A stretch of 4,397 nt of DNA, taken from a virus (Duplodnaviria > Heunggongvirae > Uroviricota > Caudoviricetes). Positions 2,260 through 3,762 of the stretch are shown here, piece after piece. The position numbers were made by a program, and so were the translations under genes. The stretch's first letter is position 1, and every line of letters starts with the position of its first letter. The notes under the pieces were generated by a model that was not told where the DNA came from, did no database searches, and saw only the letters and a list, made by a program, of their open reading frames with translations. The stretch lies in IMG/VR virus record IMGVR_UViG_2548876698_000016. One strand, written 5' to 3'.

Positions 2260-2499
2260 ATGCTGAAACAGCAGGATATGACAGAAACCGCCAGAGTTGT
2301 GTTTGATGAATTAAGCGTCACCGAACCGGCGACGGTCGGGGAGATTGCGCAGAATACGTACCTTTCACGCGAGCGCTGCCAGTTAATACTGACCCAGCTG
2401 GTTATGCGGGTCTGGCAGACTATCAGTTCGGTTGTTACAGACGCCTTCAGTCCTGAAGGCTTTTTTATTTGTGGTAAATGGGCGGCTGGTGGGTGTTAG
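2260..2499 (+). CDS. Hypothetical small protein (79 aa) with a possible helix-turn-helix segment; coding status uncertain
   Basis: ATG 2260 follows a purine-rich stretch (GGAAAGGG, 2243-2250); an alternative ATG is at 2278. The segment ATVGEIAQNTYLSRERCQLILTQL looks HTH-like. GC is higher than the flanking AT-rich spacers. Caveat: a canonical terminator hairpin plus T-run (2443-2466) lies inside the last 19 codons, so the true 3' end or the coding status is in doubt. Confidence 0.4.
   Translation: MLKQQDMTETARVVFDELSVTEPATVGEIAQNTYLSRERCQLILTQLVMRVWQTISSVVTDAFSPEGFFICGKWAAGGC
2443..2466 (+). terminator. Canonical intrinsic terminator (7-bp stem, 4-nt loop, T6) located inside the 3' end of the 79-aa ORF
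   Basis: GCCTTCA (2443-2449) pairs perfectly with TGAAGGC (2454-2460) around loop GTCC, followed by TTTTTT (2461-2466) and ATTT. Confidence 0.5.
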
Positions 2500-2527
2500 C
2501 GGCACCTGTCAGTCCTTTGCTTATGTG

Positions 2528-2558
2528 TTGATGATAATTTACCTTTTGGGGCTATAAT
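2528..2558 (+). promoter_or_regulatory. Candidate sigma70 promoter for the AraC-family gene
   Basis: Perfect -10 TATAAT at 2553-2558 with -35-like TTGATG at 2528-2533. The spacer is 19 nt, which is longer than optimal. It lies about 35 nt upstream of ATG 2594 in an AT-rich spacer. Confidence 0.3.
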
Positions 2559-2593
2559 TGAGCTAACCAATTGCTAATGAAAGTAAAATTATA

Positions 2594-3307
2594 ATGGCTG
2601 TTGTCTGTTCAGTTATCATGGTTTGCTCCCCAATTAATATTTTTCTTGAAAAGGATACGTTGTCACTTAAGCCCGGCTCAGTCGTTCTGGCCACCAAATG
2701 CATCAGGGCGCTTTTCCTTATGCATTATGGCAAAGTTAAAATTTTCGATATAAACCATTCCATAGTAAGTCAATATCTGGAAATTCAGCATAAGCTGACA
2801 AGAACTCATCTGACTGACGTTCCGCTTTATCTGTCACTGGAACCCAACAACCCTGCGTTGGCTGAGGCTTTAATTACCAGCCAGAGATTTTCCGGAGATA
2901 CCACGGATATGTTTCTTATGATGGCATGCCTGTCGCTGTTTGAATCAGATGAACGGATATTATTATTTTTAAGTGGATGTTTATCCAGTATAAGTGCCAA
3001 AGTCAGGGCGATAATTCAGACAGATATATCAGCAAGCTGGACGCTTGGTGCGATTGCGTTACGCCTGCATATGAGTGAGAGTTTGTTAAAGATAAAACTG
3101 AAAAATGAAGGGCACATGTTCAGTCGCTTGTTGCTGGAAGAGCGGATGCGTGTTGCTGTCAATATGTTATGTTCCCGGCATGGATATGGACAGGCTGTAG
3201 CAGAAAAATGCGGTTATTCAAGCTGGTCCTACTTTATTTCTGTATTTCACCGCTATTATGGCTTCCCGCCAGACAGATATGTATCCAGGCAAGGGCTTGA
3301 TTATTGA
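2594..3307 (+). CDS. AraC/XylS-family transcriptional regulator, YdeO/AppY/GadX-like subgroup (prophage-encoded)
   Basis: The 237-aa product has a C-terminal AraC-type double HTH (WTLGAIALRLHMSESLLKIKLKNEGHMFSRLLLEERMRVAVNML...AEKCGYSSWSYFISVFHRYYGFPP). The N-terminus MAVVCSVI... resembles the M-x-x-VCSV start I recall for YdeO and AppY, which supports ATG 2594 as the start despite a weak Shine-Dalgarno. The gene is AT-rich. Stop is TGA 3305-3307. Confidence 0.8.
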   Translation: MAVVCSVIMVCSPINIFLEKDTLSLKPGSVVLATKCIRALFLMHYGKVKIFDINHSIVSQYLEIQHKLTRTHLTDVPLYLSLEPNNPALAEALITSQRFSGDTTDMFLMMACLSLFESDERILLFLSGCLSSISAKVRAIIQTDISASWTLGAIALRLHMSESLLKIKLKNEGHMFSRLLLEERMRVAVNMLCSRHGYGQAVAEKCGYSSWSYFISVFHRYYGFPPDRYVSRQGLDY

Positions 3308-3335
3308 TTTTCATCTGATTATTATTTTTTGGCTC

Positions 3336-3411
3336 GGCCCTTTAGCTCAGTGGTGAGAGCGAGCGACTCATAATCGCCAGGTCGCTGGTTCAAATCCAGC
3401 AAGGGCCACCA
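3336..3411 (+). tRNA. tRNA-Ile2 (anticodon CAU, lysidine type; ileX/ileZ-like)
   Basis: A 76-nt cloverleaf folds cleanly: acceptor GGCCCTT/AAGGGCC, D-arm GCTC...GAGC, anticodon loop CTCATAA (CAT at 3369-3371), T-arm GCTGG-TTCAAAT-CCAGC, discriminator A and encoded CCA. It is near-identical in architecture to E. coli ileX as I recall it, including the C4:G69 and C5:G68 pairs used by TilS, so Ile2 is favoured over Met. Confidence 0.88.
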
Positions 3412-3418
3412 TCACATA

Positions 3419-3495
3419 CCGCCATTAGCTCAGCCGGACAGAGCAATTGCCTTCTAAGCAATCGGTCACTGGTTCGAATCCAGTACAACGCGCCA
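3419..3495 (+). tRNA. tRNA-Arg (anticodon UCU)-like gene; acceptor stem anomalous, possibly a degenerate or pseudo-tRNA
   Basis: D-arm (TA-GCTC-AGCCGGACA-GAGC), anticodon arm (ATTGC-CTTCTAA-GCAAT, TCT at 3453-3455), 5-nt variable loop, T-arm (ACTGG-TTCGAAT-CCAGT) and 3' GCCA are all canonical. However, the presumed 5' acceptor strand (CCGCCAT, 3419-3425) is not complementary to the 3' strand (ACAACGC, 3485-3491) in my hand fold, so the boundaries and functionality are uncertain. Confidence 0.6.
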
Positions 3496-3535: not shown

Positions 3536-3732
3536 AAATGTCTCACAATTCAGGCGGTTGACTGTTGTCTGGTTTGCGGGGAGTTTGTTAAAAGAAACTG
3601 GCATGGTGAATCCCCCTGTGCGGAGGGGCAATCAGCGAGTAGGTATATGGGATAATCGCGGATTCAGGTGCTGGTACTGAATTCACCGGGAGGCACCCGG
3701 CACCATGCAATGGCACATAGCGCCACTCTCCA

Positions 3733-3756
3733 GCCCCTCTCCGGAGGGGCTTTCTT
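3733..3756 (+). terminator. Terminator-like hairpin (plus-strand orientation) in the tRNA-to-nanS intergenic region
   Basis: 7-bp stem GCCCCTC (3733-3739) / GAGGGGC (3744-3750) with loop TCCG, followed by TTTCTT (3751-3756). The U-tract is imperfect. Confidence 0.45.
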
Positions 3757-3762
3757 ATGGAC

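Follow-up and report, generated by a model that had tools for sequence, protein, structure and literature searches.

The reading frame at positions 2594..3307 (+ strand) of the window, by which we mean the whole 4,397-nt stretch of viral DNA analyzed here (IMGVR_UViG_2548876698_000016), is very probably psrA, the characterized AraC-type regulator of E. coli O157:H7 prophages that acts by raising GadE and in this way lowering type III secretion. Megablast searches showed that the whole window is 99.7-99.8% identical to E. coli O157:H7 prophages and that at least 80% of it is present in 542 of 5,426 complete genomes. In the Sakai genome the window corresponds to prophage Sp4, from ECs_1082 to ECs_1088, at 99.7% identity with 11 mismatches and one 90-bp gap, and in the resequenced EDL933 genome it corresponds to the yccA-adjacent prophage. 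The encoded protein shares 236 of 237 residues with both the ECs_1087 frame and EDL933 WP_000261909.1, the sole difference being Ala2 vs. Val2, and a 100% nucleotide match of the gene was found in strain TT12B (WP_000301781.1). Published psrA is ecs1087 on Sp4 (PMC13502914, Tree laboratory), or z1789 in reviews that also list psrB as z2104 and the two as 90% identical (PMC10877973, PMC8565820). Near-identity and the same prophage context thus place the window protein with PsrA. The initial annotation had proposed, from the letters alone, a YdeO/AppY-subgroup prophage regulator of the Psr/PatE type; given the residue identity and the identical gene order, the gene is PsrA itself, and the finding is a rediscovery of a characterized and already known gene. 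PGAP labels the protein in RefSeq as “helix-turn-helix domain-containing protein,” and the Sakai record labels it “AraC-family transcriptional regulator.” As PsrA is one of the connections between EHEC prophages and the host circuit of acid resistance and type III secretion, its correct recognition matters for the annotation of O157:H7 genomes. Our results leave the known biology of PsrA unchanged, and their by-products are at the level of annotation: the 237-aa start, the location on the prophage, and a CPBP gene that is no conserved partner.

The psrA frame (237 aa plus stop in the ORF list) runs uninterrupted from the ATG at 2594 to the stop codon at 3305-3307 and begins with MAVVCSV. Blastp, the YdeO profile and the alleles delimit an N-terminal domain of approximately residues 1-130 (2594..2983, + strand) with an M-x-x-x-CSV start, which blastp aligned colinearly with the corresponding domains of PatE, GadW, YdeO, and AppY. 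It is followed by an AraC/XylS DNA-binding domain (3056..3283, + strand; residues 155-230) with two helix-turn-helix motifs, delimited by Pfam and PDB matches. Both Pfam models, HTH_18 on residues 155-230 (E 5.7e-09, 36.6 bits, cutoff 33.6) and HTH_AraC (E 1.2e-08, 35.3 bits, cutoff 26.6), scored above their gathering thresholds. The C-terminal AraC-type HTH claimed initially was hence found, the lack of any AraC-family similarity that could have overturned that claim was not seen, and PsrA has the approximately 100-residue C-terminal domain with two helix-turn-helix motifs that characterizes the AraC/XylS family. The best NCBIfam match was the YdeO model (E 5.2e-30, PsrA 1-229 on profile positions 1-230 of 253), and PHROG 1450, a phage family without assigned function, covered the whole protein (E 1.4e-94). 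Among solved structures, the DNA-binding domain of GadX (3MKL) matched with E 1.5e-18, the other closest ones being Rns, CsvR, and ToxT. The gene had also been described as AT-rich, in agreement with a GC content of 42.4% for psrA, 35.1% for its 94-nt leader and 37.7% for the CPBP gene, vs. 51-56% in the flanks.

PatE (37.9% identity to PsrA in blastp), GadW (35.2%), YdeO (31.2%), and AppY (28.7%) all aligned from residue 1, which makes the N-terminal motif a genuine signature of the subgroup. It had been read as a mark of a GadX/YdeO/AppY subgroup, which is right for YdeO and AppY, and also for GadW and PatE, but not for GadX, for which blastp aligned PsrA residues 87-234 only. Colinear full-length homology combined with the M-x-x-x-CSV start assigns PsrA to a GadW/YdeO/AppY/PatE subgroup. 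PsrA scored 104.9 bits against the YdeO equivalog model (NCBIfam NF007407, cutoff 348 bits), and it scored 88.4 against that of GadX (NF007432, cutoff 500) over residues 107-232 only. As these scores lie far below the cutoffs, PsrA is no orthologue of GadW, YdeO, AppY, or GadX.

Literature data agree with the initial proposal of a prophage regulator reprogramming acid resistance and virulence. PsrA and PsrB are reported to raise gadE and yhiF, which encode regulators of the GAD island, and so to repress LEE type III secretion indirectly, GadE acting as a repressor of ler and the LEE so that secretion falls (PMC10877973, PMC8565820). Deletion of psrA increases secretion, and PsrA aids persistence in a sheep colonization model (PMC10877973, PMC8565820, PMC13502914). 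Direct DNA binding, to the promoters of gadE and hdeA, has been described for PsrB rather than for PsrA, and PsrB also increases acid resistance and survival (PMC10877973, PMC8565820, PMC13502914). Levels of psrA and gadE follow the prophage sRNA HnrS, apparently indirectly (PMC10877973, PMC8565820, PMC13502914). We looked for HnrS in the window, and it is encoded on Sp9, Sp10, and Sp12, not on Sp4. By analogy to PsrB, PsrA would be a direct activator at AT-rich sites of the gadE and hdeA promoters, and through it the prophage would feed into the YdeO/GadW/GadX/AppY circuit of the host. The lysogen would express psrA from the gene's own promoter, and after induction transcripts from the Q-dependent late promoter could extend into it.

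A promoter-like ATGATA-16-TATAAT at 2531-2558 lies in the psr leader (2499..2593, + strand). It gave the best score (10/12) of the region covered by our consensus scan, and allele comparison showed that the approximately 95-nt leader including this site is kept in 7/7 alleles, even in that of isolate A34 with unrelated sequence further upstream. This site fits the initial suggestion that psrA has its own candidate promoter. Upstream of the leader we found a terminator-like hairpin (2443..2470, + strand, stem-loop 2443-2460) composed of GCCTTCAGTCCTGAAGGC followed by a T run, and a second one at 2115-2130, between the CPBP gene and a small ORF. This small ORF (ECs_1086; 2260..2499, + strand) is a frameshifted version of a 65-aa winged-helix-like protein found alongside psr in most alleles. 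Compared with the intact 198-bp ORFs of Sp11 (ECs_2192), O104:H4, MS7163, and STEC409 it has lost 1 nt, and it is a pseudogene in the window as well as in Sakai Sp4. The PGAP annotation reads “TrmB family, frameshifted,” PHROG 331 matched with E 6.8e-37, and the Pfam models TrmB and HTH_24 stayed below threshold. The stop codon of the intact ORF falls inside hairpin 2443-2460; judged by its position, the 2443..2470 hairpin probably marks the end of the small-ORF unit, and transcription arriving from upstream would be kept out of psrA by it unless antiterminated by Q. On the other side of psrA, 28 nt 3′ of the gene, an ileZ-type tRNA with anticodon CAT (3336..3411, + strand; ARAGORN, Rfam, and the Sakai annotation ileZ) opens a tRNA cluster, and this linkage is kept in all contexts examined.

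The initial placement of the gene next to Q (623-1003) holds only loosely: psrA is not adjacent but 1.6 kb downstream, with the CPBP gene, both hairpins and the frameshifted small ORF in between. The first gene after Q, in a stretch of 28-38% GC, encodes a CPBP/Rce1-like intramembrane protease (1155-1973; Pfam PF02517, E 1.4e-19; PHROG 13291). We compared the contexts of Sp4, Sp11, O104:H4, UPEC MS7163, STEC409, and the wild-animal isolate A34, and among these the CPBP gene occurs in the Sp4-type context only. What is constant is the leader, psr and the tRNA cluster (ileZ-argN-argO), with the small ORF preceding the leader except in A34. What varies is the cargo between Q and this unit: Sp4 carries CPBP there, O104:H4 has two genes on the reverse strand, unrelated hypothetical genes fill the interval in MS7163 and in STEC409, and Sp11 has none. 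Regulation of the upstream CPBP gene by PsrA is thus without comparative support, as the CPBP slot differs or is empty in Sp11, O104:H4, MS7163, STEC409, and A34, and we dropped CPBP and psrA as a functional pair on this co-occurrence evidence. From the arrangement of these genes, the leader, psr and tRNA cluster, usually with the small ORF, may form a mobile cassette of the Q-to-lysis slot. In the Stx2 prophage of STEC409 (L014 4501-6824) the tRNA cluster and stx2 follow directly after the psr homologue, and an iraM gene is present just after stx2B. A psr homologue of approximately 89% amino-acid identity lies upstream of the tRNA cluster and stx2 also in phage phiSTEC1575-Stx2k (OQ243220.1 16748-17458).

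Such fixed surroundings raise the question of whether PsrA is primarily directed at the phage itself, acting on CPBP, the small ORF, the tRNAs or late genes, with incidental effects on the host. That psr is always located in the Q-to-lysis slot and always followed by the tRNA cluster, is usually preceded by the small winged-helix ORF, and in STEC409 and phiSTEC1575-Stx2k stands just upstream of tRNAs and stx2, would fit this explanation. Yet CPBP, one of its possible targets, is restricted to the Sp4-type context, psrA has stayed intact despite the small-ORF pseudogene and the IS-rearranged Sp4 of Sakai and EDL933, and the published PsrA phenotypes concern host regulons (PMC10877973, PMC8565820). 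We therefore consider a mainly phage-directed role distinctly unlikely and retain PsrA as the regulator of GadE and type III secretion. Should Q-antiterminated transcription pass both hairpins, induction would co-express PsrA-type regulators, tRNAs, and toxin; if true, lytic induction would be coupled to GAD activation and LEE shutdown.

Annotations differ in the start codon of the gene. The Sakai record gives ECs_1087 195 aa (588 bp) with a start at Met43 (nucleotide 2720), whereas PGAP gives 237 aa. If the Sakai form were the true product, the first 42 codons would be a leader; the original annotation lists 588 bp for both ECs_1087 and ECs_2191, and neither ATG (2594 or 2720) is preceded by a strong Shine-Dalgarno sequence. 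However, the alignments to PatE, GadW, YdeO, AppY, and the YdeO profile begin at residue 1 and take in residues 1-42, and the N-terminal frame is open and conserved in 7/7 alleles. In the most divergent pair these 42 codons differ by six synonymous and six nonsynonymous changes, the latter being below the neutral expectation. The shorter product is in our opinion very unlikely, and homology supports the 237-aa start over the Sakai annotation of 195 aa.

Next to psrA, the window holds a frameshifted small ORF and one crippled tRNA, and the region is AT-rich and probably H-NS-silenced, as might be expected if psrA no longer had a function and were carried silently, or were decaying, in a defective prophage. 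Results of the allele comparison speak against it: psrA is intact in 7/7 alleles, at 85% to 100% nucleotide identity, and its whole-gene dN/dS of 0.21-0.43 (allele pairs having synonymous differences), thus below 0.45, indicates that the gene is under purifying selection. Frameshifted or truncated copies in relatives, which would have pointed to a pseudogene, were hence looked for among the seven alleles and not found. Moreover, 726 of 5,426 complete E. coli genomes carry psrA, with no pseudogene flag in any of 40 rows sampled across the ranking of genome matches, and both a deletion phenotype and regulated psrA expression are reported (PMC10877973, PMC13502914, PMC8565820). A gene without function is extremely unlikely in the light of these data.

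Sakai-type genomes have two places for a psr gene, the second being ECs_2191 in Sp11. Another second locus, guessed from the best match of 20R2R at 2.26 Mb, was rejected, as Sakai 2.24-2.285 Mb holds only Sp12 and core genes and the 20R2R locus is Sp4 in a genome merely numbered differently. We also sought psrB in Sakai Sp10, which has no AraC gene and was negative in tblastn, and found it in Sp11. Window PsrA is 91.1% identical to ECs_2191, in agreement with the published 90% for PsrA and PsrB (PMC8565820). Since Sp11 carries the OI-57 effectors nleG2-3, nleG6-2, and nleG5-2, we assign ECs_2191 as psrB and the gene of the window as psrA. We give hardly any credence to the converse, that the window gene is the paralogue PsrB (z2104, ECs_2191), for although the two are so similar and share the slot before ileZ and Ala2, the window protein has 99.6% identity with the Sp4 copy vs. 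91.1% with the Sp11/OI-57 copy, which has a differing context, and the whole 4.4-kb window matches Sp4 at 99.7%, including the CPBP gene that is absent from Sp11.

PsrA and PsrB differ by 21 substitutions, including position 211, which is Trp in PsrA vs. Arg in PsrB. Trp211 (codon 3224-3226), in the YSSWSYF segment, stands at the start of the second recognition helix. In the allele alignment residue 211 is Arg also in O104:H4, MS7163, and STEC409 and Lys in A34, and the equivalent position is Thr in YdeO, GadW, and AppY and Val in PatE and GadX. We take this position to be one that faces DNA in the MarA-DNA structure. With Trp vs. Arg in the second helix-turn-helix motif, target preference of PsrA and PsrB may differ. 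Deletion of psrB is reported to have little effect on secretion (PMC8565820), and a target set altered by Trp211 could explain why a secretion phenotype is seen only in the psrA deletion. A joint reading, in which a mobile cassette couples the regulator to induction and Trp211 separately changes the target set, appears rather unlikely.

In reviews psrA (z1789) is placed on OI-50 together with espK, espN, and nleL (PMC8565820). We compared two regions of resequenced EDL933 (NZ_CP008957.1, 1626000-1675500 vs. 1240000-1289900), and a tblastn search of the prophage at the OI-50 position (potC/potB), which carries those effectors, revealed no psr homologue. In finished genomes psrA resides instead in the prophage at the Sp4/CP-933M position adjacent to yccA. 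The OI-50 assignment may stem from the original 2001 EDL933 assembly, and the location of psrA could matter when phenotypes of OI-50 deletions are read.

Downstream of psrA, the tRNA cluster of the window deviates from that of Sakai. At 3419-3495 (vs. Sakai L002 29503-29669) a 90-bp deletion across the shared TTAGCTCA has fused the argN 5′ acceptor arm to the argO body. The hybrid keeps the TCT anticodon; its acceptor stem is unpaired (5′ CCGCCAT vs. 3′ ACAACGC), ARAGORN made no call, and Rfam matched model positions 7-64 only. No one-piece alignment across the deletion was present among the best 25 genome matches to the whole window, and Sakai, EDL933, 493/89, and TT12B have three tRNAs each; the deletion thus appears to be confined to the source strain. 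Three further differences from Sakai are clustered at 3332-3336, at the 5′ end of ileZ, where G1 of the window pairs with C72 and the Sakai nucleotide is A1. A short recombination patch from the tRNA cluster of another prophage may be their source.

Between the tRNAs and the esterase gene we observed an Rfam match to STnc100 at 3572-3762 (+ strand; 138 bits, gathering score 47). EvrS (Esr023), a 154-nt sRNA that represses the LEE via z2269, was mapped between z1789 and the esterase gene z1793, starting at a C and ending 154 nt later at a T after the terminator; STnc100 is absent from the text of that paper (PMC11774850). In the window, C3602 to T3756, with its end after hairpin 3732-3751, fits the mapped ends exactly. 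By position and by the fit of both ends, 3602-3756 is probably EvrS.

Compared with known systems, PsrA resembles GadW, YdeO, and AppY in its two-domain architecture and MxxxCSV start. GadX provides the DNA-binding domain with the closest solved structure, yet it has the C-terminal half alone in common with PsrA. All four, encoded on the chromosome or on DLP12 and part of the GAD circuit, feed into gadE (PMC10057817). PatE (z0321; ECs_0287, Sp1, OI-8) is likewise prophage-borne and a full-length homologue (E 2.5e-52), and it reportedly activates gadE, gadBC, and hdeAB while decreasing LEE transcripts (PMC10877973). It is, however, a distant paralogue in another prophage, located outside the Q-to-lysis slot, at the end of a remnant. 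Full-length relatives 37-40% identical to PsrA are present also in several functional lambdoid phages. PsrB is alike in its equal length, its leader, its position before ileZ and its reported activity in trans on gadE and yhiF (PMC8565820), while its prophage Sp11 differs in having no CPBP gene and an intact small ORF. The closest system is psrA of Sakai and EDL933 itself, in which the neighbors, DUF968, RusA, Q, CPBP, the frameshifted small ORF, psrA, ileZ, and the esterase gene, are identical to those of the window. At the sequence level the window allele is distinct from this studied allele in Ala2 rather than Val2 and in G rather than A at leader position 2562, and at both sites it has the state found in psrB and all other alleles.
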